A stretch of 54,194 bases of DNA, taken from the IMG/VR virus record IMGVR_UViG_3300045988_120344, positions 1 through 54,194 of that record. The stretch is one strand, 5' to 3'. Below are positions 11,563 to 51,181 of this stretch, piece by piece; position 1 is the stretch's first letter; each line of letters begins with the position of its first letter. The translations under genes were made by a program, and so were the position numbers. The notes under the pieces were generated by a model. That model saw nothing but the letters and a program-made list of their open reading frames with translations. It had not been told where the DNA came from and searched no databases. Origin of the DNA: a virus.

Positions 11563-14232
11563 TTAAACATGGACAGCTTCTGCACCTGTATTTATTCCAG
11601 TTAAAATATATTCGGTTATCTGGTCAATAACACCATCAATATCTTGCTGTTTTTCAATAGTTGGGTTAATATCGCCAACGCTGACAGCTATTTCCTGTGT
11701 AGTATAATGCTGCACTGCTTCTTTGCTAGCAAGCTCTCTAGCTTCCTTGGCAATTTCGATAAGGTCATCCATAGCGTCCGCCATTCTGCCGGTGTTGTCA
11801 GCGGTATCACGTGCAGCGCCACCGTCTCCGCCTGAACCACCTGAACTACCTCCCGAGTTATCATTTTTCTGTGCTGGCACCTCATCAAGTTTATGCCGTA
11901 TACCATCACCGAACAAATCTTTCATAGCTCCAACCGGGTCTTCCTCAAATCGTTTACCTGCGTCATAAGCACCCGCTGAATCGATTCTGCCTGTTTTTAT
12001 ATGTGACATGGGGTTAAACCCTGATATAGCTTTTCTCTCTAAAGTTAAACCGCTAGCAGATACCGAGCTTATATCTATACCTGGGATTTTATTCATTAAC
12101 GCAATAATACCATTTATTGCTTCTGCTACCAATTCTACAACGCCATTCCAAATATCAGCGAATAGATTGTATATAGCTGCTAATGGGTCTTGGAATACGC
12201 TGCCCAGAAAATTGGCAAAATCAATAAATCTGTTTATAACAAATTCCACTAAAGCCGAAATCGCGTTGAATAGCCAAGCAAACACTGTAAATATAATACC
12301 CGTTGCGGATATGCTAGTGCCTGCAAATCTGTTTACGGCGGCGATAACGACATAAAAAACAACTATAAGTAAAACTATTAAGCCAATTATCCAAGTAAGC
12401 GGACATGCAGCTAAGGCAGCGTTTAGACCATTCTGTGCAAAAATTAAACCTATTATAGCCGCGGTTTCCATAAAGGATGCAACCGCATGAGCTATTGCAC
12501 CTCCTACCGCCATAGCTGATGATGCTAACCATGCCACCCCTAAAGCCATAACCGCAACACCCAGCCCCATTAATATCGGAAATATATAATCCATGTTTTG
12601 TGATATTACATCAACAAACCATTGCGCTGTATTTGCTGCTTCACTAAAACCACTGATTATATTTTCTACAAATTGTGTAGTAGCAGGTGACTCCGCTATA
12701 TACTGGATATTATTCATTACCCAGTCAAGGGCTCCGGCCAATGCGACAACACCATTGACCGCGGCATCACTAATTATGCGGACTACTTTGCTATTTGCTA
12801 AATCATTAACTTTTTTATAAACCCCACTCATTGCATAATCAATTTTTGTCATGCCAATCTGCCAAATATCACTCCATTTAAGCGGTATTCCTTCAAACAT
12901 GGCATTGATGGTGTCCATGTTATCAAGTATAGCCTTTTTTAATATTTCGGCAGTGATAAGGCCATCACTTGACATTTGCTTTAAGGCACCCGTCGTAACA
13001 TGTAAAGACTTAGCTACCATTTGTTCAATCATTGGCGCAGCTTCGGCTATTGACCTGAACTCGTCGCCTTGCAATTTGCCGCTGCCTAGCGCCTGCGTTA
13101 ACTGTAACAAAGCGTCAGCTTGTTGCTGTACACCTGTTCCACCAATAGCGAACAGCTTTTGAATCCCTTCCATAAAAGGCACTACCTGTTGCGGGTCAGG
13201 AAACGCCTCTTTAGCTGTCATAGCAATTTTACCAACTGCATCCGCCATTTGTGTATAAGAACCTCTAGCTCTTATAGCTGATTGGAAAATAGCTTCATTC
13301 ATGGCTTCAACATCACCGCCAGCACCTACAATAAGTCTTAACCTTGCTTGCATACCTGAATAAGCGTCTGACGCTGACATAAGTTTGCTAGGAAGACTGG
13401 ATATTTCCGCTGCTACTTTTGAAATAGCTCCGGCAGCAAGATTAGCCATAGTCATTTGACCAAAGGTACTGCCAGCTAATCCTTTAAGTTTACGGAAGGC
13501 TCCGGATGTGTTATTAGTGCTATTAGTTAAGCCTGCCAATGCGTCATTTGCGGGACCTGGTGACACATGACCAAATAAGTCAGAGAACTTCTGTTTGATA
13601 CTTGCAGCAGTCTCACCAGCTTTAGCTTTTATACTTTCAAACATACTAACAACTTTAGGTGCGGAGTTTTGCGCCGCTATACCCAATTGTATGAACGGGT
13701 CTGCATAGGCTAATCCTATCCGTTTTCCTAGTGTTAACACGGGCTGCATTGATGCAGTAACAGATTTTCCCACTGGACCAAGCTCTCGTTTTGCCACTAT
13801 ACCTAATTGTATAAAAGGGTCTGCATAAGCTAAACCCATCCGTTTTCCTAATGCCATTAATGGTTGCATTGACGCGGTAACGGATCTCCCCACTGACTGT
13901 CCTTTGGTTGCTACTTTATCAAGTTCTCGCCCTGCTATTGTGCCCAATTGTATGAACGGATCAGCATAGGCCATTCCTATTCGTTTTCCGATATTCATTA
14001 TAGGCGCTATACTATTTTGAATAGCTTTAGTATTTATGTTAATGCTTTTGCCCTGCATACTATCAACAACCCGTTCTACACCGGAGACAGACTGTTCTAA
14101 CTGGTCAAAAACTTTTCTGCCGTTAGCTATCGAGCTAAAGCCTTTTTGCGTAGCATTGACGCTCTGTGTAATTCTGTTGAGCGCTGGTGACACGCCGTCA
14201 ACTAGTTCAATTCGGTTTTGTAATGTAGCCAC
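11563..14232 (-). CDS. Tail tape measure protein
   Basis: 889 aa; the largest gene, directly after the chaperone pair; internal hydrophobic segments; Gly-rich tract; GTG start with GGAGGTGATACA RBS. Confidence 0.9.
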   Translation of the reverse strand: MATLQNRIELVDGVSPALNRITQSVNATQKGFSSIANGRKVFDQLEQSVSGVERVVDSMQGKSININTKAIQNSIAPIMNIGKRIGMAYADPFIQLGTIAGRELDKVATKGQSVGRSVTASMQPLMALGKRMGLAYADPFIQLGIVAKRELGPVGKSVTASMQPVLTLGKRIGLAYADPFIQLGIAAQNSAPKVVSMFESIKAKAGETAASIKQKFSDLFGHVSPGPANDALAGLTNSTNNTSGAFRKLKGLAGSTFGQMTMANLAAGAISKVAAEISSLPSKLMSASDAYSGMQARLRLIVGAGGDVEAMNEAIFQSAIRARGSYTQMADAVGKIAMTAKEAFPDPQQVVPFMEGIQKLFAIGGTGVQQQADALLQLTQALGSGKLQGDEFRSIAEAAPMIEQMVAKSLHVTTGALKQMSSDGLITAEILKKAILDNMDTINAMFEGIPLKWSDIWQIGMTKIDYAMSGVYKKVNDLANSKVVRIISDAAVNGVVALAGALDWVMNNIQYIAESPATTQFVENIISGFSEAANTAQWFVDVISQNMDYIFPILMGLGVAVMALGVAWLASSAMAVGGAIAHAVASFMETAAIIGLIFAQNGLNAALAACPLTWIIGLIVLLIVVFYVVIAAVNRFAGTSISATGIIFTVFAWLFNAISALVEFVINRFIDFANFLGSVFQDPLAAIYNLFADIWNGVVELVAEAINGIIALMNKIPGIDISSVSASGLTLERKAISGFNPMSHIKTGRIDSAGAYDAGKRFEEDPVGAMKDLFGDGIRHKLDEVPAQKNDNSGGSSGGSGGDGGAARDTADNTGRMADAMDDLIEIAKEARELASKEAVQHYTTQEIAVSVGDINPTIEKQQDIDGVIDQITEYILTGINTGAEAVHV
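13663..14010 (-). repeat. Three tandem ~40-aa repeats inside the tape measure gene
   Basis: Protein repeats (I/L)GKR(I/M)G(M/L)AYADPFIQLG(T/I)(I/V/A)A...VTASMQP occur three times; the corresponding DNA repeats are visible near 13690, 13810 and 13950. Confidence 0.85.
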
Positions 14233-39760: not shown

Positions 39761-40549
39761 CTATGCAGCCTGCTCAATAAGTGGCAATGTGCCGTTTTTC
39801 TTAAGCAACTCATACAGGAATAACCTGCCCTTCTGCGTCCACTTAGTATTCATGACTACATCAGAACGTCCATCCGAGTGCTCGATGTTGACGGTTTCGC
39901 TATGGGTATAGCCTTTAGCTTGGTACTTGCTGTACAAAAGCCACTGACTACCCATTTTGTAAATAACCTTTAGCTCGTGAAGCAGGCTATTCATTTTTTT
40001 ACCACTCATGCCGTAGTCCTTAGCTATCTGAGTGATAGTTACTAAGGAACTGCTCTGCAATATGCGGTCGGTGTAGTCCGCTTTCGGCTTCAGCTCGTTT
40101 ATGATTTGCGACTTCTGCGCAACTTCAAGCTCCGCCGTTTTTCTAGCTTCCTTTTCTTCTTTCAGCTCTGTTGCCAGCTTGATAATGAAATCAGGCTCTT
40201 GCAGGGCTTTTTTGATAACATCATCCGTCATGTAAGCACCATGCTTGCGGATAGCTGGGAGAACCTCATCGGCTAGAACCGCTTGGAACTTCTGAGCTTT
40301 ATCGTTCGATGCTTTAAAACCAAGGCGGTATACCATGTTTTCAGGGATGTAATCGTCCCCACAAGTGGGGACGAACCCAAAGTCTTTAAGATACTTATTT
40401 ACCCGTTCCCAACGAACAACTTCATTGCCACTTTTGGCAATTTGAGTAAATCCCCAACCTCTAGCCACATCTTCCGCATTTAACATGGCTGTACCATGCT
40501 CATCAACATAACCTCTAATATTTGCTACTGTCATTAATTTGTTTTCCAT
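39761..40549 (-). CDS. Phage antirepressor (BRO-N-like N-terminus plus KilAC-like C-terminus)
   Basis: 262 aa; C-terminal ITQIAKDYGMSGKKMNSLLHELKVIYKMGSQWLLYSKYQAKGY is KilAC-like. Confidence 0.7.
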   Translation of the reverse strand: MENKLMTVANIRGYVDEHGTAMLNAEDVARGWGFTQIAKSGNEVVRWERVNKYLKDFGFVPTCGDDYIPENMVYRLGFKASNDKAQKFQAVLADEVLPAIRKHGAYMTDDVIKKALQEPDFIIKLATELKEEKEARKTAELEVAQKSQIINELKPKADYTDRILQSSSLVTITQIAKDYGMSGKKMNSLLHELKVIYKMGSQWLLYSKYQAKGYTHSETVNIEHSDGRSDVVMNTKWTQKGRLFLYELLKKNGTLPLIEQAA

Positions 40550-40605
40550 AAAAAAAATCTCCTTTTATCATTGCTGTACCTTTGCTACAATAAAAGTACA
40601 GCCTG

Positions 40606-40809
40606 TCACGCTGTGAGGTTGCCGCCCCACAACGTCCTTAAATCCAGTATGTTCAGTAAATCCGCAATACAGATTGCCGTCCGTAAGCTCGGTTTCTGTC
40701 CATACTCCAACCGCTGGTAGCTAACTTCTGCAATTCCTACACGGTCGGCTACTTGCTTTTGTGTGAACCCTGCCTTGTGGCGGGCTTCAATTAACGCCTT
40801 GTTCTTCAT
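40606..40809 (-). CDS. XRE-family HTH regulator
   Basis: 67 aa; FTQKQVADRVGIAEVSYQRLEYGQKPS; paralogue of 38648-38866. Confidence 0.7.
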   Translation of the reverse strand: MKNKALIEARHKAGFTQKQVADRVGIAEVSYQRLEYGQKPSLRTAICIADLLNILDLRTLWGGNLTA

Positions 40810-40915
40810 GTCTCTCCTCTCCTTTTGTATTTAACACTACGTATTACGTTGTGTCTGTTTATAATATACACTACGTAATATGTAGTGTCAAGACTTTTAT
40901 TTGGAGGTGTTTTTT
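40810..40915. promoter_or_regulatory. Second divergent control region with two 19-bp operator-like dyads
   Basis: cactacgtattacgttgtg (40835-40853) and cactacgtaatatgtagtg (40869-40887; CACTAC/GTAGTG arms); shares tatttaacactac and ttataatata-cactac blocks with 38867-38960. Confidence 0.55.
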
Positions 40916-41137
40916 ATGTCTACTCTTTCTGCTAGATTGATAGAACTTAGAAAAGAAAAAGGCTTGACACAAAAGAACCTCGCTGATTTTCTTGGCATTG
41001 CGCCGGTTTCTTGGCAACGTTTTGAATATGGTTCGTCAAAGCCTAAACTCGAAAACATCATTACCTTGGCTGACTACTTCAACGTCTCAATTGATTACTT
41101 AGTCGGTCGCACCAACAACCCTGAAATCAACCGCTGA
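40916..41137 (+). CDS. XRE-family HTH regulator (ATG 40916 after GGAGGTG)
   Basis: LTQKNLADFLGIAPVSWQRFEYGSSKP...LADYFNVSIDYLVGRTN; paralogue of 38961-39179. Confidence 0.75.
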   Translation: MSTLSARLIELRKEKGLTQKNLADFLGIAPVSWQRFEYGSSKPKLENIITLADYFNVSIDYLVGRTNNPEINR

Positions 41138-41173
41138 ACCTCTGACAGGCTGTGCCCCCGCTTGGGGGCTTTT

Positions 41174-41962
41174 TTAGTTCAGTAATGTTTCTCTCTGTGC
41201 CAGCAGCTTGTCCATAATGCGCATTGCGTCATCAAGATAGCCCTTACGCTCTAGGAAGTCAGGCGTGCTGATTTTCTTGATCCCCTGTTTTTCACAGTAA
41301 TAGTTCTGTGAATTTCTCAGATTGGTGTGGAAAGCTGTGTTGTAAGCTTGACGGAAGTCATGCCATCCTCGATTAAATGCCAAGCCGTTACTGATGGCAT
41401 ACTTTTGAACCATCGCAACTAATTTCTGCCGCTTTGTACCTTCTGTACAGACACCGTTCAGCGTGTCCATGCGGGAATTGACAATTCGCAAGCTCTCAGC
41501 CTGTTCTTCCTGCGTCAGCTTAAGCCGTGCTAACTCTCGCTCCTGCCGTTGCAATGCCTTGGCACTCTCAACAAGAATGTCAATTTGCGTTTTTGGCTCT
41601 TTTTGATTGAAGTAATTTTCTTCCAGCAGGTCGAACATGTCCCATGCCCTGTCAGTACCTAACATTTTTGAATGGCGGGCTGCTCCTTGTTTCGTCCAAA
41701 GTGTTAGTGTTGCGGTTCTGGCTCCAATTCCAACCGTGTCGAAATTTTCGACGCGGTTCTTAAAAACACGTAATTGCTCGCCATCCAACTTAAAATAATG
41801 CTTGCCTTCCACGAACCGTTCCTTATTGTTGTTGAAATTTTGCCGAATCTGTTTCGGCTCACATCCATAAAACTCAGCAAGCTGTTCAGTGGTCACTACC
41901 GGTTGATTGCTATATTCAACAACTGGTGTTTCAATATTTGCGATTTTTACTAAGTTTTCCAT
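41174..41962 (-). CDS. ORF6N/ORF6C-type antirepressor-like protein
   Basis: 262 aa; VVTTEQLAEFYGCEPKQIRQNFNNNKERFVEGKHYFKL is the ORF6N pattern. Confidence 0.65.
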   Translation of the reverse strand: MENLVKIANIETPVVEYSNQPVVTTEQLAEFYGCEPKQIRQNFNNNKERFVEGKHYFKLDGEQLRVFKNRVENFDTVGIGARTATLTLWTKQGAARHSKMLGTDRAWDMFDLLEENYFNQKEPKTQIDILVESAKALQRQERELARLKLTQEEQAESLRIVNSRMDTLNGVCTEGTKRQKLVAMVQKYAISNGLAFNRGWHDFRQAYNTAFHTNLRNSQNYYCEKQGIKKISTPDFLERKGYLDDAMRIMDKLLAQRETLLN

Positions 41963-42500: not shown

Positions 42501-42701
42501 TCAATCGGGTAAAAAAATATACTTCTTGTCGATTCCGTATAAATTACAGAGCATCAACAAGTTAGCCTCATCTATACGGGTTTTGCCGTTTTCCCAACGG
42601 CATATAGTAATCGGGCTTTTATGCAATAGTTTACATACATCCGATTGACTAAACCCAGCATTAACTCTTGCCGCCGCAAGAGTTATTTTTAGCTTAGACA
42701 T
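42501..42701 (-). CDS. Cro-like XRE-family HTH protein (first gene of the lytic transcript)
   Basis: 66 aa; FSQSDVCKLLHKSPITICRWENGKTRI; divergent from the CI-like gene. Confidence 0.75.
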   Translation of the reverse strand: MSKLKITLAAARVNAGFSQSDVCKLLHKSPITICRWENGKTRIDEANLLMLCNLYGIDKKYIFLPD

Positions 42702-42899: not shown

Positions 42900-42943
42900 T
42901 AGCAAAAATAGCAAAATGTGAATTTTATTATTGCTATTGCTAG
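42899..42943. promoter_or_regulatory. Operator-like half-sites ATAGCAA (two direct, two inverted) overlapping both -35 boxes
   Basis: atagcaa at 42899 and 42908; ttgctat/ttgctag at 42931 and 42937. Confidence 0.55.
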
Positions 42944-42959
42944 ATGCTTTTTATATAAT
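42931..42959 (+). promoter_or_regulatory. Repressor-gene promoter: TTGCTA - 17 nt - TATAAT
   Basis: ttgctattgctagatgctttttatataat, 22 nt upstream of the repressor ATG region with its AAGGAGG RBS. Confidence 0.65.
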
Positions 42960-42981
42960 AAATCTATAAGGAGGTTTTATT

Positions 42982-43428
42982 ATGAGCCTACATAATACGG
43001 CATTTACAAAAAATTTAAGGCAATTGTTACACGAAAAAGACAAAACACAAAAAGAATTAGCCGCTTATGTATGTGTGTCTGCACCATCGGTTAATTCGTG
43101 GGTTAAAGGCACTAAAATGCCGCAATTAAGTAAAATCAAAAAGATAGCTTCTTTTTTTCATGTTCCTGTACAAGCGTTACTTTCTGAAGAAAATGAAAAA
43201 CTTGACAAACCACCGAATATTTCAGAAGTATCAGTCGTACCCGCCGATGCTAAATCTGAAAGCGGTCTGATGGTTGAACTATTTGCTGACCGTCCCGATG
43301 TTCTTGAGATAATCGACGGCAAAGTTTTTGGCGACAAGGAAAACAAAAAGCCTTTGTCGCCGGAAGCAAAGCTCCATATAAAAAATTCAGTTCTTTTCAC
43401 CCTCCGTGCTTGCGGTTATAACGTGTGA
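42982..43428 (+). CDS. CI-like repressor (XRE HTH plus a C-terminal domain)
   Basis: 148 aa; KTQKELAAYVCVSAPSVNSWVKGTKMP; first gene of the plus-strand lysogeny operon. Confidence 0.75.
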   Translation: MSLHNTAFTKNLRQLLHEKDKTQKELAAYVCVSAPSVNSWVKGTKMPQLSKIKKIASFFHVPVQALLSEENEKLDKPPNISEVSVVPADAKSESGLMVELFADRPDVLEIIDGKVFGDKENKKPLSPEAKLHIKNSVLFTLRACGYNV

Positions 43429-43555
43429 TTCAATCTGCTAACTAGCAGTTGAAAATACATTATAAAGGGGTGTTGCCACATGGAGAATGTCTACTACATA
43501 ATAATCGATGGTAGAATTGTCCGTATAGTCATTGCAGACTAAGGAGCAATACCAA

Positions 43556-43936
43556 TTGAAAAAACGAATTATAAATATAAATAAAACAGCATTAAAGACT
43601 TTCTTCATCTTCACGCTCATCTTTGTCGGAATGACCGGCTTCACGCTGCGGAATATCCCTGATTTGTCTGACTATCGCCCTGCATCCATCGTAAGCATCG
43701 CTGAACCGGCGGACATAGAATCGGACACAGAATATACGTGGGACAGCCACATTAAGTCAGCAACTAGCCTAGTCAAAACGACCGATTTTTTAAATGTACC
43801 AACATTATCGGCGATTGTACTTACAACGACTTTTGTACTGATTTTAATTAGTAAACAATTTTATCTCAAAAGTCACATTGAATATTGTGGTAAGAAGATG
43901 GTAAAAGCAATAATGCTGCAGTGGAGACCAAATTAA
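43556..43936 (+). CDS. Membrane protein (TTG start after AAGGAG; track ORF starts at 43532)
   Basis: Two hydrophobic segments (FFIFTLIFVGMTGF; LSAIVLTTTFVLILI). Confidence 0.55.
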   Translation: MKKRIININKTALKTFFIFTLIFVGMTGFTLRNIPDLSDYRPASIVSIAEPADIESDTEYTWDSHIKSATSLVKTTDFLNVPTLSAIVLTTTFVLILISKQFYLKSHIEYCGKKMVKAIMLQWRPN

Positions 43937-43966
43937 AATAAAATACAAGTAGGTGTTAATTGAATA

Positions 43967-45364
43967 ATGTCATGGTTACGAAACTTATTAGGGCTTACTA
44001 CCCCAGAAGAAAAAGAATTGCAAGCTATGCGAAAAGAAACAGCTCAACTGAAAGAAGAATCAAATCATATTATATACAATGCTAAAAAAAAAGCCGATAC
44101 CATCATATCAGAAGCAGGAATAAATGCTAAAAATATAATTGACGAAGCTACCGCAAGCATTGCTGAACGTAAACAAGATCTTGAACATCAAGTAAAGTCT
44201 CTAAAAGAAACACTCGATGTAAATAAAAACGGCCTCAAATCATTAGAGGACGAATTGCGTATAAAACAGGGCGCTCTTATTGAACTTGATGAAAAAGTCC
44301 TCTTACAAAATGTATCGCTTTATGAACCTATGTATGATTTTGTAAATTCAGACCGATACAAAGAAGAACTTGATAAAATTCGCAGCAATCAAAAAGCTTT
44401 AATAAAAAATGGATCTGCCATTTCAAAAACACAAACTTGGGTAGTAAATGGAAGTACTGCTGAAGGTAAAAAGATGGTGCGCGACATTTCAAAACTACTT
44501 CTTCGTGCTTTTAACGGCGAATGTGAACATTTGACTGCTAAAGTAAAGTATAATAATTTCGACGCATACAAAAAACGTATTGAATCTGCAAAAGAAGCCA
44601 TAGACAAACTAGGACGATGCATGAGCATTAGCATCAATTATGAATATTTTGATTTAAAAATAAAAGAACTTCATCTTGCTTTTGAGTATAAGCAGATGAA
44701 GCAAAAAGAAAAAGAAGAACAGCGTATGCTACGGGAGCAGCTGCGTGAAGAAGCCCGGCTGAAAAAAGAAATTGAAGAAGCTCGCAGGAAGATCAAAAAA
44801 GAACAGACACATTACAAAAATGCTATCTCTGCAATGAAGGAAAAAATAGCCAGCGCAAAGACTTCTGATGATAAGGAAGTTTTTGTGCAAAAACTAAGTG
44901 AGCTTGAAGAACAGGCGGAGCAGGTAGAAAAGCATATTGCTGATATAGACTACCGCGAAAGCAATCAAAAAGCTGGCTATGTCTACGTTATATCAAATAT
45001 CGGTTCTTTTGGCGAAGGTGTTTATAAGATAGGCATGACGCGCAGACTGGACCCGATGGATAGAGTACGCGAACTTGGAGACGCCTCGGTACCCTTCGGT
45101 TTCGATATTCACGCTATGATTTTCAGCGACAACGCTCCCAAGTTGGAAGCAGCTATCCACAAGGCCTTTGAGAACAGAAAAGTAAATATGGTAAATACAA
45201 GGCGGGAATTTTTTAGAGTTTCGCTTGATGAGATAAAAGATACTATAAATAAAAATTTTGATGGCAGTGTAGATTTTATCGAAACCGCGGATGCTGAACA
45301 GTTCCGAGAAAGCGAAAAACTTTGGCAACAGATGAACGCCCATACCAAAAAGGAGGGAGCTTGA
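43967..45364 (+). CDS. DUF4041-like coiled-coil protein with a C-terminal T5orf172 (MUG113, GIY-YIG-related) domain
   Basis: 465 aa; C-terminal GYVYVISNIGSFGEGVYKIGMTRRLDPMDRVRELGDASVPFGFDIHAMIFSDNAPKLEAAIHKAFENRKVN...REFF is the T5orf172 signature. Confidence 0.7.
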   Translation: MSWLRNLLGLTTPEEKELQAMRKETAQLKEESNHIIYNAKKKADTIISEAGINAKNIIDEATASIAERKQDLEHQVKSLKETLDVNKNGLKSLEDELRIKQGALIELDEKVLLQNVSLYEPMYDFVNSDRYKEELDKIRSNQKALIKNGSAISKTQTWVVNGSTAEGKKMVRDISKLLLRAFNGECEHLTAKVKYNNFDAYKKRIESAKEAIDKLGRCMSISINYEYFDLKIKELHLAFEYKQMKQKEKEEQRMLREQLREEARLKKEIEEARRKIKKEQTHYKNAISAMKEKIASAKTSDDKEVFVQKLSELEEQAEQVEKHIADIDYRESNQKAGYVYVISNIGSFGEGVYKIGMTRRLDPMDRVRELGDASVPFGFDIHAMIFSDNAPKLEAAIHKAFENRKVNMVNTRREFFRVSLDEIKDTINKNFDGSVDFIETADAEQFRESEKLWQQMNAHTKKEGA

Positions 45365-45654
45365 TGTTCTGTAAAAGTTGTGGAAAAGAACTGCCTAATG
45401 ATGCTAAGTTCTGCCTTAACTGTGGAGAAGCTACCGTCTCGATAATGAATAGCGTAGACAAGTCAATGCCTAATTGCCCCCAATGCCATTCTTACAATAT
45501 TACTATAAACAAGAGAGGCTTTGCCTTGGTTAGAGGCATTGTTTTGGGTTTATTTACAGGTGGTATCGGCTTATTGGCTGGATTCTTCGGAATGAATAAG
45601 TTGGTAGGAAAATGCCTTGACTGCGGATATAAGTGGGACATTTTGAATAATTAA
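45364..45654 (+). CDS. Zinc-ribbon membrane protein (ATG overlaps the upstream stop, TGATG)
   Basis: MFCKSCGKELPNDAKFCLNCG..., CPQCHS, TM GIVLGLFTGGIGLLAGFFG, CLDCGYKW. Confidence 0.65.
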   Translation: MFCKSCGKELPNDAKFCLNCGEATVSIMNSVDKSMPNCPQCHSYNITINKRGFALVRGIVLGLFTGGIGLLAGFFGMNKLVGKCLDCGYKWDILNN

Positions 45655-45664
45655 TAATCATCTA

Positions 45665-45693
45665 AAGGTGTATCACAAAAGATACACCTTTTC
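45665..45693 (+). terminator. Rho-independent terminator
   Basis: AAGGTGTATC-acaaaa-GATACACCTT followed by TTC. Confidence 0.65.
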
Positions 45694-45746
45694 AAATACT
45701 CAAATTTGCTATATACGAATAAAAAATTGATAGGAGTGACGCTTAA

Positions 45747-46952
45747 ATGGCCGTACGAACTAGAAAACGCGGTAAAACATGGAGTTATAGTTTTGACATT
45801 GAGCCCGGTCCTGACGGTAAACGCCGTATGAAAGAAAAAGGCGGTTTCAGCTCAAAAGAGGAAGCGTTTACTGCTGGTGCAGCTGCTTATACCGATTGGA
45901 AAAACGGTAATATCGGGTTGACTAGTGACAAGATACTTTTACGGGATTATCTGGAAAAATGGTTTAACCTTCATCAAAAGGACTTAAAGCCAAACTCTGT
46001 CAAAACCTATAATACGGCTATAGAAAACATTAACCGGTATTTAAGTAATATCATTTTGCAAGATTTAAAACCACGTGACATCGACCTGCTTTTCCGCAAA
46101 CTTTGTGACGGTGAAAATAAATCGTATCGTACAATTCAAACTATAAAAACCGTTCTGAGTACGGCCCTTGCTTATGCTGTATATCCGTTGGAGCTTATAA
46201 GCTATAATGCCAGTACCGCTATAAAAATCCCTAAACGGGCTAAACGGCAGGTAGTAAAGCGCTATGTCATAACCAGTAGCGACCTTGAACACCTGCTGAC
46301 TTTGTACCCGTTCGGTACGGATTACCATATCCCGATAGTTTTGGCTTACTATACGGGTTTAAGACTAGGAGAGCTGCTAGGCCTTACCTGGGATAATATA
46401 GATTTAGTCACAGGACAGGTTGATATCGTAAAGCAGCTTACTTATATACCCAGGCAGGGATTTTGCTTTAGGTCATTAAAAACTGATACTAGCAGACGTT
46501 CAATTATGCTTGATACTATAACTATAGCTATTCTGCGCAAATGGCTAAACCTGCAAAAGCAGCGCGAATTAAAAGCCGGTTCATCTTATGTATGCATTTT
46601 TACTAATGAAAACGACTTTATAATACAGAGCTCTAAACGAATAATACAACCGGATAACTACAAACGGCTAAAAATGGTGTGTACCCGTCTTGACGGTGCC
46701 TTAGTTAGCCGTGACTCCTTTTCCCAGACGTTACGCAAAAACGGATTTAACAGCCACTCTTTTAGACATACCCATGCTACCCGTTTAATCGAAAACATGG
46801 CGTCACCGAAAAGTGTGGCCGCAAGGCTAGGTCACAAGTCAACAACCATTACCGAAAATCTTTACACGCATAATACAGATTTAATGCAAAAGCAGGTTGC
46901 TGACATCACTGAACATTTACACGAAAAAGATGTAGACAAGCCTGCTTTGTAG
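45747..46952 (+). CDS. int: Tyrosine recombinase/phage integrase
   Basis: 401 aa; YTGLRLGELLGLTWDNID, HSFRHTHATRL, LGHKSTTITENLYTH (R..HxxR..Y catalytic pattern). Confidence 0.9.
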   Translation: MAVRTRKRGKTWSYSFDIEPGPDGKRRMKEKGGFSSKEEAFTAGAAAYTDWKNGNIGLTSDKILLRDYLEKWFNLHQKDLKPNSVKTYNTAIENINRYLSNIILQDLKPRDIDLLFRKLCDGENKSYRTIQTIKTVLSTALAYAVYPLELISYNASTAIKIPKRAKRQVVKRYVITSSDLEHLLTLYPFGTDYHIPIVLAYYTGLRLGELLGLTWDNIDLVTGQVDIVKQLTYIPRQGFCFRSLKTDTSRRSIMLDTITIAILRKWLNLQKQRELKAGSSYVCIFTNENDFIIQSSKRIIQPDNYKRLKMVCTRLDGALVSRDSFSQTLRKNGFNSHSFRHTHATRLIENMASPKSVAARLGHKSTTITENLYTHNTDLMQKQVADITEHLHEKDVDKPAL

Positions 46953-47174
46953 ACAAATTGTAGACAAATAACAAAACAGATGACCGTTATCCTTGCTTCA
47001 TTAAGGGTAAAGGTCATCTGCTCATATAATGGTTTAGTATTAGAAGTAATATTACATGTTATTTTAAAGGGATTTAGTCTCTTTGTCAAACCGGAAATAT
47101 CACAATAATATTAATCTAAACTGTTTTATGATTTTCAGCGGTTTTACTTTCATCTGTAGACAAATCGTAGACAA
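46932..47174 (+). repeat. Five same-orientation GTAGACAA motifs flanking the int-downstream spacer (candidate attP arm sites)
   Basis: 46932, 46949, 46960, 47156 and 47167; occur as pairs 11 nt apart on each side. Confidence 0.5.
46977..47020. terminator. Long hairpin between the convergent int and 47116-47706 genes
   Basis: CAGATGACC...GGTCATCTG with an inner TTATCCTT/AAGGGTAA pairing. Confidence 0.55.
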
Positions 47175-49763: not shown

Positions 49764-49848
49764 AAAAAAGACTTGACCTCATGTATTGGTAGTAGTACAA
49801 TTAAAGTATCAAAAGGGAAACACCTTAATAAGATGAAAAAATAAAAGC
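49764..49848 (+). promoter_or_regulatory. Promoter-leader repeat copy 1 (TTGACC - 17 nt - TACAAT)
   Basis: -35 at 49773-49778 and -10 at 49796-49801; about 85 bp near-identical to 51832-51915. Confidence 0.65.
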
Positions 49849-49963: not shown

Positions 49964-51181
49964 TTATTCTTCTGGTGGTAGATTGTTTAAGTATTCTTTG
50001 ACTTTCCCAAAGTAAATTCGCAGAAACTTGTTGGCTCCAGCTGTCATGTAGACGTAGTAAGGCTTGCCCTCATCGCGTTTCTTCGCCATGAATCTATATA
50101 CTGGGTCATCCTCTGGCTGGTTTTTAATCAGCACTTCCATTATAAGGAACAAAGTCCTTCTTAGATAAGGTGAGCCGTGCTTGCTGGTGTGAACGCTTTT
50201 CTGGGCATAGTCGCCGGATTCATTAACACCTGGGTCTACGCCTGCAAAGGCTGTCAGCTGGCTGCGCTTGGTGAATTTATGCACATCGCCAATCTCGGCA
50301 ATAAGCTGCGGGCCAAGAGTCGTTCCTACGCCGAACATGGACATCACAACAGGGTATTCAGGCAATTGTGAGGCTAAGCTGTCCATCTGCTGACGAAGTT
50401 CCTCCACGGCTTTGGAAATGGCATTGAGCTGTGTTACAGCCTGCTGGACAAAAAGTTTGGTCATGTCATCCTTGGCTAGAATGGGAATCAGCTCTTTTGA
50501 GGCATTATAGATTTCAGCAGGTTTGTCCGGCTGGAAATTGTAGCCGTGCTTTTTGCACCATTTCTGATATTTTTCCGTAAAGGATTTGAGGCTGAGGTTA
50601 CAGACACAATCCACATGCCAAAATTTTTCAATGAAGTCTACCCATTTCTCGCTGCCATCAGGCCGCTTGGGGCTGGTAAAGAATTTATTGGCTCCTGGAT
50701 AGGTTTCATCCATCAGGGCTATAAGGTTATTTTTGTAAGCCGTCTGCTGCTTCTGGTAGAAGCTCATCTGACGGTTCATGGTTTTAAGCTGTGTACGTAT
50801 ATTATCCATAGCTGTATATTGACGCAGCATATACCATTTGTCAAGGGCAAAGCGGCCAATCTTCCTGGCATCTGCCTTGTCGGTTTTGACACGGCGCAGG
50901 GAGTTGTTGTCGAAGTCCTTGATTAGCTTGGGATTCACGGCGCTGACGAACAGTCCCGCGCCAGAAAGCCAGCGTACCACGGGTTCGTAATAACGGCCTG
51001 TGTGTTCCAAAACAATGCGGCATTCGCCGCCTAACGTATTTAAATAGTTTACGAGGTCGTTCATGCCGCTCTTGGTGTGACGTACCTCAAAAGGTTTGGC
51101 TACTGTCTTGCCTAGAGGCTCTAACACGGCTACCGTGCTCCTGCATTTCGAGACATCGATTCCTACTGCGTACATGTGCAT
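49964..51181 (-). CDS. IS110-family (DEDD) transposase/recombinase
   Basis: 405 aa; N-terminal YAVGIDVSKCRSTVAVL; C-terminal FGVGTTLGPQLIAEIGDVHKFTKRSQLTAFAGVDPGVNESGDY (Transposase_20 pattern). Confidence 0.9.
   Translation of the reverse strand: MHMYAVGIDVSKCRSTVAVLEPLGKTVAKPFEVRHTKSGMNDLVNYLNTLGGECRIVLEHTGRYYEPVVRWLSGAGLFVSAVNPKLIKDFDNNSLRRVKTDKADARKIGRFALDKWYMLRQYTAMDNIRTQLKTMNRQMSFYQKQQTAYKNNLIALMDETYPGANKFFTSPKRPDGSEKWVDFIEKFWHVDCVCNLSLKSFTEKYQKWCKKHGYNFQPDKPAEIYNASKELIPILAKDDMTKLFVQQAVTQLNAISKAVEELRQQMDSLASQLPEYPVVMSMFGVGTTLGPQLIAEIGDVHKFTKRSQLTAFAGVDPGVNESGDYAQKSVHTSKHGSPYLRRTLFLIMEVLIKNQPEDDPVYRFMAKKRDEGKPYYVYMTAGANKFLRIYFGKVKEYLNNLPPEE

Follow-up and report, generated by a model that had tools for sequence, protein, structure and literature searches.

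A SNIPE/PD-λ-1 family protein without a transmembrane segment, translationally coupled to a zinc-ribbon protein gene, in an integrase-adjacent cargo slot of a temperate phage

We analysed a 54,194-nucleotide stretch of viral DNA (IMG/VR record IMGVR_UViG_3300045988_120344, positions 1 to 54,194), referred to here as the window, and in particular the genes that lie between its CI-like repressor gene and its tyrosine integrase gene. One of these genes codes for a 465-aa protein which, judged from its sequence, clearly belongs to the SNIPE/PD-λ-1 family of defence proteins. We propose, with a probability of about 0.72, that it is a defence protein carried as prophage cargo and that it acts as SNIPE of E. 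coli does. The gene that follows it, coding for a 96-aa double zinc-ribbon protein, overlaps it by 1 nt, and together the two genes (43938 to ~45700) are one of several alternative cargos that occupy a hotspot beside the integrase gene. A first-pass annotation of the same DNA had regarded this region as a candidate defence unit of three genes that could not be assigned to any named system. The system is now named by the PADLOC result described below; thus, an anonymous DUF4041/T5orf172 prophage gene gains a named and mechanistically understood defence family, and the unit is corrected to two cargo genes. The coordinates of all features are collected in Table 1, and related loci and proteins are cited by L and P numbers, respectively.

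The family assignment rests on matches over nearly the whole length of the protein. The PADLOC model for PD-Lambda-1, PDLC03976, aligned at E = 3.9e-156 with residues 15-461 over profile positions 37-481 of 491, the PADLOC model PDLC03977 matched at E = 2e-146, and the PHROG family phrog_1847 matched at E = 1.2e-151. The suggestion of the first-pass annotation that the T5orf172 protein serves in defence against phages is borne out by the full-length PADLOC match. Both the DUF4041 region and the T5orf172/MUG113 domain that it had read from the letters alone were recovered by Pfam (Table 1), and PF13250 (DUF4041) carries the label SNIPE in the precomputed Pfam matches of the contig collection. 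Homologues number ~8,000. For comparison at the level of residues we used the 500-aa protein of E. coli phage PhiR26_1 that is annotated as PD-lambda-1. It was taken as the SNIPE reference because the nine residues that the SNIPE paper names, L253, E264, K305, E223, T319, W257, I308, N250, and E414, are all at their published positions in it. The 465-aa protein is 38-43% identical to this reference, and its residue E394 aligns with E414, the published catalytic Glu of SNIPE. E394 is invariant in an alignment of 82 sequences, and so are the motifs GYVYV, YKIGMTRR, and REFF. Every sequence-defined feature of SNIPE was therefore found in the 465-aa protein except the transmembrane (TM) anchor.

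The AlphaFold2 model of the 465-aa protein has a mean predicted local distance difference test score (pLDDT) of 86 and an elongated layout made up of a short helix (residues 2-7), one of 90 residues (13-103), the DUF4041 region, a helical hairpin (225-332), and an alpha/beta domain (337-430), an architecture that agrees with the published description of SNIPE. When the full-length model was compared with the PDB by Foldseek there was no match at E <= 0.001, and the top entries were long alpha-helical or filament-associated chains. A PDB sequence search with the nuclease gave no match. The three open reading frames (ORFs) between the repressor and the integrase genes are all real genes under purifying selection because their ratios of nonsynonymous to synonymous substitution rates (dN/dS), calculated against an 85%-identical relative, are 0.12 for the gene of the 126-aa protein with two TM segments (two-TM gene), 0.13 for the gene of the 465-aa protein, and 0.14 for the zinc-ribbon gene. 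As the first-pass annotation had stated, all three are present on the + strand, in the same orientation as the repressor and the integrase genes.

PD-λ-1 was discovered in E. coli by functional selection (Vassallo et al. 2022, PMC9519451) and was then characterised as SNIPE (Saxton et al. 2026, Nature, PMC13190303). In that work SNIPE has its anchor in the inner membrane, its DUF4041 domain binds DNA and contacts tape-measure proteins, and its GIY-YIG domain cuts phage DNA during injection. An induced resident prophage is spared. It is a direct defence in which the cells survive, and the authors contrast it with an abortive-infection (Abi) system (PMC13190303). The family also works outside E. 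coli, since PD-Lambda-1 in the Gram-positive bacterium S. thermophilus protected against siphoviruses by more than 3 logs (PMC12322248). In the table of that paper it is listed with 1 where AbiE and AbiD have 2, and we take it from this column to be a single-gene system.

If the 465-aa protein acts in the same way, then it would be expressed in the lysogen and would be found at the cytoplasmic face of the membrane. Its association with the membrane may be brought about by the short helix at the N-terminus, MSWLRNLLGL, which looks amphipathic, together with the long DivIVA/stator-like helix. By analogy with E. coli SNIPE, when a tailed phage superinfects the cell, the DUF4041 domain would engage its incoming DNA and its tape-measure complex, and the GIY-YIG domain, with E394 as its catalytic residue, would cut the DNA at injection. 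The cell would be protected directly and without suicide, and the resident DNA would remain untouched. The zinc-ribbon protein would be an embedded membrane protein that is inherited with the nuclease and coupled to it in translation. It is somewhat more likely that its gene is an independent prophage accessory acting on the envelope than that it codes for an obligatory SNIPE subunit.

The lack of a TM segment required closer inspection of the N-terminus. None was detected in the 465-aa protein: the maximum 19-residue Kyte-Doolittle mean is 0.74, and AlphaFold2 predicted soluble helices only. We also considered whether a start codon further upstream, which would give the protein a TM segment, had been overlooked; this is ruled out because position 43967 is the first ATG, GTG, or TTG codon after the preceding in-frame stop codon. 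In E. coli SNIPE and in 59-66% of its homologues there is a single-pass TM segment at the N-terminus, and 34% of the homologues are without one; the N-termini of the latter are often DivIVA-like or T3SS-ATPase-like, and similar routes of membrane association that do not use a TM segment have been proposed for them (PMC13190303). Since the published family includes these TM-less homologues, the missing TM segment places the 465-aa protein in the TM-less subclass and not outside the SNIPE family. The N-terminal helix of the 465-aa protein gave weak matches to DivIVA (E = 0.0014), HrpE/YscL, V-ATPase E, and F0F1 b, and these are of the same kinds as those published for TM-less SNIPE homologues.

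Most of the TM-less homologues that we collected (L002-L006, L034, L039-L060, and L149) start with the motif MG(L/I/F)xD(I/V/M/L)F(K/N), which is followed by (T/S)PE. The 465-aa protein has MSWLRNLLGL-TTPEE in its place. The motif of the other homologues resembles the membrane-binding helix at the N-terminus of PspA/Vipp1. Hydrophobic moments from a simple calculation were 0.18-0.50.

Several points weigh against the proposal that the 465-aa protein acts as E. coli SNIPE does. Removal of the TM segment made E. coli SNIPE toxic through cleavage of host DNA, the anchor thus preventing autoimmunity (PMC13190303), and a protein that is TM-less by nature would need some other restraint. The literature examined contains no experimentally tested TM-less SNIPE homologue, and for this subclass both membrane localisation and safe discrimination between self and non-self would be extrapolations from the anchored protein. 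In the Foldseek comparison the GIY-YIG matches (Slx1) were only weak and came at ranks 13 and 18. Lastly, given the conserved overlap with the zinc-ribbon gene, the nuclease may not work by itself. The published SNIPE work leaves open what holds the TM-less third of the family in check, and the subclade with the strictly coupled zinc-ribbon gene offers a convenient test case.

Comparison of related phages showed that the region downstream of the two-TM gene is a cargo hotspot. Homology of the window to L079, L082, and L072 in blastn ends in every case at 43937, one base past the stop codon of the two-TM gene, and the slot extends from there to the integrase gene. L080, which carries the SNIPE cargo, and L079, which carries another, are 98.3% identical up to this same breakpoint. 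Both have an identical two-TM protein, P0127, which is followed in L080 by the SNIPE and zinc-ribbon genes and in L079 and L081 by overlapping and unrelated genes for 176-aa and 196-aa proteins (L079:5391-6483 and L081:1040-2132). In L082 a close variant of P0127 is followed by genes for 311-, 142-, and 168-aa proteins (L082:1237-3654), and in L072-L078 the slot is empty so that the two-TM gene leads directly to the integrase gene. The exchange between L079 and L080 upholds the earlier view that this is non-essential prophage cargo within the lysogeny module. The alternative cargos had no match in Pfam or PADLOC, and these occupants without recognisable domains are an inexpensive set of candidates among which new defence or exclusion genes may be found. 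Beyond this lineage, in about 55 other loci a SNIPE homologue lies alone between repressor/ImmA and integrase/recombinase genes. Most SNIPE homologues have no conserved neighbour and most are without a zinc-ribbon gene. Among gut Bacillota phages SNIPE is thus distributed as exchangeable cargo in a sharply bounded slot beside the integrase. The GC content of the cargo is 37.3%, compared with 41.3% for the genome, which puts it in the lowest 10% of windows; this is mildly low and not decisive.

The two-TM gene does not belong to this cargo, and here the earlier description of three genes as one unit is not supported. Its homologues, 37-66% identical, occur in the order repressor, two-TM gene, integrase in L072-L078, where SNIPE is absent, and its dN/dS lies between 0.12 and 0.17 overall. 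It is therefore a conserved backbone gene of the phage lineage. For the same reason, namely, that it occurs without SNIPE in these relatives, the idea that it is a split-off N-terminus of SNIPE is ruled out. The two hydrophobic segments that had been described in its product were confirmed. The start that had been given, TTG at 43532, is probably wrong, and TTG at 43556, 24 nt downstream, is preferred because a Shine-Dalgarno sequence (AAGGAG, 43541-43546) is placed 9 nt ahead of it and because alignments with homologues begin only at this codon. The protein had no match in Pfam, PADLOC, PHROG, or NCBIfam; possibly, it has a role in superinfection exclusion.

The zinc-ribbon gene was found as the first-pass annotation had described it. 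Its product has four CxxC pairs that form two zinc ribbons by Pfam (Table 1) and one Gly-rich hydrophobic segment at residues 52-78, and its ATG overlaps the upstream TGA by 1 nt (cTTGATGttc) and is preceded by AAGGAGG. SNIPE genes that are 100% (L032), 99% (L066), 97% (L080), and 85% (L065) identical to that of the window are each accompanied by a zinc-ribbon gene, and the 1-nt overlap is kept in every full copy of this subclade in IMG/VR and metagenome contigs. In the one incomplete copy, L067:1-632, the SNIPE gene (97% identical) is represented by its 3' end. The zinc-ribbon gene that follows it diverges after residue ~49, is truncated, and borders on metabolic genes of the host (DHH, DAHP synthase, and others). 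Either the cassette has decayed here or the assembly is chimeric. Hotspots in which defence cargo varies between conserved prophage genes are familiar. The strict coupling to a zinc-ribbon gene is absent from the SNIPE literature examined, and we regard it, from the sequence comparisons, as a detail that may generate hypotheses and not as a demonstrated variant of the system.

Outside this subclade the zinc-ribbon protein belongs to a large family. An exhaustive search, which carries no genomic context, found 2,799 representative clusters where a word-indexed search had found 3. The module, CPxC-KKGF-Gly-rich-CxxCG-KW, usually makes up the C-terminal ~60 residues of proteins of 90-320 aa, and its eight Cys residues are invariant in 19 family members. 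When 60 viral loci with the module were retrieved with a 6-sequence alignment, 59 had no SNIPE gene within 3.5 kb and the exception was identical to L032. In the GenBank phages Javan278, PLg-TB25, and SMO_1P the module is encoded between repressor and integrase with no SNIPE gene present. Among 41 cases in IMG/VR contigs of 15 kb or more, 21 have the zinc-ribbon gene no further than 3.4 kb from a contig end, which fits a generic accessory gene of prophage ends. No significant PADLOC match was obtained for the zinc-ribbon protein, a literature search found no function for the module family, and the AlphaFold2 model from a 4-sequence alignment (pLDDT 58.6) was unusable. In the Clostridioides phage phiC2 the 186-aa protein p19 (L071:2656-3216) has the same zinc ribbon at its N-terminus and the CxxC-hydrophobic-CxxC module at its C-terminus, and its gene is in the tail module directly upstream of the tape measure gene, a curious position given that SNIPE contacts tape measure proteins.

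These results raise the question whether the zinc-ribbon protein is a partner of the nuclease. A functional partnership is doubtful in our judgement, and independent co-cargo is somewhat more probable. In its most explicit form, which we consider unlikely, the zinc-ribbon protein would be the membrane anchor or adapter that serves the TM-less nuclease in trans: the Gly-rich segment would lie in the membrane, one or both zinc ribbons would hold the N-terminal helix of the nuclease in the cytoplasm, and the nuclease would thereby be kept off the chromosome and at the sites of injection. The toxicity of ΔTM SNIPE in E. coli (PMC13190303) implies that an anchor is needed. The overlap is kept even in the copy in which SNIPE is 85% identical and the zinc-ribbon protein only 51-61%, both genes are under purifying selection, and the pair is gained and lost together in the hotspot. 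However, synonymous divergence from L065 is 0.63 for the SNIPE gene and 1.71 for the zinc-ribbon gene, which suggests separate histories. Elsewhere zinc ribbons are fused in cis to the N-terminus of the nuclease, as in P0095 (Zn_ribbon_4, E = 7.6e-07, just below the Pfam cut-off) and in L030:3827-5167, where CNKCG...CLDC stands just ahead of the conserved TPE motif, and fusions to DUF4428 have been published (PMC13190303). Against this, the module occurs very commonly as a C-terminal tail and is nearly always found away from SNIPE, as the 59 viral loci show. The TM-less homologue L005, which is 52% identical, has a gene for a protein with a zinc ribbon and a TM segment 191 bp downstream that shares the motif LGxxTGGI, and the PH domain, which is fused to some SNIPE homologues (PMC13190303), occurs as a separate bPH_1 gene downstream of the TM-less SNIPE genes of L003 and L035. 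Of 20 TM-less clusters, 6 have an ORF for a small TM protein no more than 250 bp downstream, and none of 15 TM-bearing clusters has one (Fisher p = 0.027, a value for which ORFs were called crudely and in which taxonomy is a confounder). The other 14 TM-less clusters have no such neighbour, and the neighbours that do occur are heterogeneous (lipoprotein, SLATT, bPH, and ImmA), as a moron slot beside the integrase would lead one to expect. The AlphaFold2 model of the zinc-ribbon protein is uninformative on this point. The broader proposal, that TM-less SNIPE nucleases work in two parts, with a membrane adapter (a zinc ribbon, bPH, or another small membrane protein) encoded by a separate adjacent gene, is likewise tentative and improbable as it stands. 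If it is true, then the N-terminal modules (TM, PH, and zinc ribbon/DUF4428) would be exchangeable as independent genes, and the nuclease could be retargeted or restrained in a modular manner.

The first-pass annotation had likened the pair to abortive-infection architectures. In such a toxin-immunity or abortive-infection pair the zinc-ribbon membrane protein would restrain or trigger a toxin nuclease, and infection would release killing. Translational coupling agrees with this, E. coli SNIPE is toxic when it is mislocalised (PMC13190303), and the Gly-zipper-like hydrophobic segment could conceivably perturb membranes. We nevertheless find this very unlikely. The nuclease matches a family of direct defence whose prototype leaves the cells alive and was set apart from Abi by its authors (PMC13190303), the prototype and the S. 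thermophilus system, as tabled (PMC12322248), work as single genes, and neither the zinc-ribbon protein nor the two-TM protein matches a PADLOC model. A different explanation is that the T5orf172 protein serves the phage itself, in replication or partition or as a homing endonuclease. Homologues in GenBank phages are labelled 'chromosome segregation ATPase', 'helicase', or 'regulatory protein', and T5orf172 domains occur in diverse phage proteins. The labels, however, are automatic and derive from the coiled coil, and the family has demonstrated defence activity. The gene is within the lysogeny module and is opposite in orientation to the replication genes. The nuclease is dispensable for the phage because the sister phage L079, with flanks 98% identical, carries unrelated genes in its place. 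A need of the phage itself had been named in the first-pass annotation as the outcome that would speak against defence, and with this finding a function for the phage is largely refuted and scarcely credible.

Close downstream of several other TM-less SNIPE genes, and on the same strand in each case, lie small genes of several kinds with a link to the envelope. L003 (5263-5637) and L035 (5281-5655) have a bPH_1 gene (E = 2e-39) on the same strand 125 bp downstream, and L002 (5211-5723) has a gene for a DUF4231/SLATT protein on the same strand 16 bp downstream. In L149 (4845-5159) the gene 15 bp downstream codes for a 104-aa protein with what reads as a lipoprotein signal (LIGC) at the N-terminus, and in L062 (5119-5715) the gene 17 bp downstream codes for a 198-aa protein with an N-terminal hydrophobic segment and then a Cys residue.

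Among known systems, SNIPE of E. coli is the closest to the 465-aa protein. The order of parts is the same over the full length, with an N-terminal adapter, DUF4041, a helical linker, and the GIY-YIG/T5orf172 domain. The catalytic Glu and other residues of the nuclease motifs are kept, and both are carried by prophages. They differ in that they are only 38% identical, that the 465-aa protein has a DivIVA/stator-like helix and no N-terminal TM segment, that its phage is a Bacillota-type gut phage whereas the prototype is from a lambdoid coliphage, and that coupling to a gene for a zinc-ribbon membrane protein is found here. The S. thermophilus PD-Lambda-1, compared by description only, is of the same family, and it is chromosomal, not in a phage lysogeny module, and is listed as a single gene. 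Prophage defence hotspots of the P2/P4 type hold variable cargo between conserved core genes. The slot described here resembles them in its conserved flanks, in its sharp breakpoint, and in having three or more unrelated cargos as well as an empty form, and it differs in being another slot in another phage lineage, with SNIPE as the only cargo recognised as defence. The small envelope-associated proteins Sie2009 of lactococcal phages and Ltp of S. thermophilus are also encoded between repressor and integrase genes (PMC3952083). The likeness is one of position only, since the two-TM and zinc-ribbon proteins have no similarity to Sie/Ltp in Pfam, PHROGs, NCBIfam, or PADLOC, where the zinc-ribbon protein matched generic zinc ribbons only.

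Table 1. Features of the window, with the cargo and its slot given before the other genes
Feature	Position	Strand	Evidence
465-aa SNIPE/PD-λ-1 protein, TM-less subclass	43967-45364	+	PADLOC, PHROG, Pfam, AlphaFold2
DUF4041 core, aa 176-231	44492-44659	+	Pfam PF13250, E = 8.2e-20, profile 1-56 of 56
T5orf172/MUG113 GIY-YIG nuclease domain, aa 337-429	44975-45253	+	Pfam T5orf172, E = 1.2e-19; MUG113, E = 3.8e-18
Predicted catalytic Glu, E394	codon 45146-45148	+	Alignment to E414
96-aa double zinc-ribbon protein	45364-45654	+	Pfam DZR, E = 1.5e-07; Zn_Ribbon_1, E = 4.1e-07; phrog_2546, E = 1e-24
Left junction of variable cargo slot	43937-43966	.	Homology break at 43937, one base past the two-TM stop
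126-aa two-TM membrane protein, phage backbone gene	43556-43936	+	Shine-Dalgarno sequence, hydrophobic segments, homologues
Probable intrinsic terminator hairpin ending the cargo unit, weak U tail	45664-45691	+	RNA fold
Tyrosine integrase, right border of cargo slot	45747-46952	+	Pfam Phage_integrase, E = 4e-22; phrog_1, E = 3.4e-66
CI-like HTH_3 repressor, start of rightward lysogeny transcription unit	42982-43428	+	Pfam HTH_3, E = 4.5e-11; PHROG transcriptional repressor families
Candidate sigma-70-like promoter upstream of two-TM gene, TTGCCA-18-CATAAT	43473-43502	+	Pattern match, weak evidence
66-aa ORF divergent from repressor	42501-42701	-	ORF
Tape measure gene	11563-14232
Endolysin gene	107-649

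The window itself is a circularly assembled and apparently complete temperate phage genome of ~54.1 kb (~54,139 bp). This follows from an exact 55-bp terminal duplication at 1-55 and 54140-54194, and since the genome is circular and complete, the genes at 47-54 kb are phage-encoded and there is no host flank. Five genes, all on the + strand, lie in the region 42982-46952: the repressor gene, the three genes discussed above, and the integrase gene. Promoter-like sites that diverge from one another are present near the repressor gene at 42931-42959 (+) and 42899-42871 (-). The candidate promoter upstream of the two-TM gene is weak evidence because sigma-70-like matches in this region are no more numerous than in shuffled sequence. 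Of the clean terminator that had been placed at 45665-45693, the hairpin stands, with an 11-bp stem, a folding free energy of -15.2 kcal/mol, and z = -6.99. It is not clean, however, as its U tract is short and partly within the stem, and a consensus scan did not call it. The window has no tRNA genes, and megablast of 42900-47000 against GenBank phages gave no match. A search of genomes for the two-TM protein, aimed at the host, gave two weak matches only, in metagenome-assembled genomes of a Bacilli and a Selenomonadaceae member.

Away from the lysogeny module, a transposase gene (49964-51181, -; phrog_2199, E = 2e-64) lies between direct repeats of ~77 bp (49764-49840 and 51832-51905, 89.6% identical), and the segment 49764-51905 is probably an insertion sequence within the phage genome. 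In the early region two ORFs of 262 aa each (39761-40549 and 41174-41962, both -) flank a pair of small helix-turn-helix-like ORFs (40606-40809, -, and 40901-41137, +). The regions of L079 homologous to 39761-41962 have genes with Bro-N/ANT and Phage_pRha matches in Pfam, and the early region may thus encode two antirepressor-like genes. The tape measure gene contains a tandem duplication of ~110 bp, the copies of which (13666-13775 and 13788-13895) are 80% identical.

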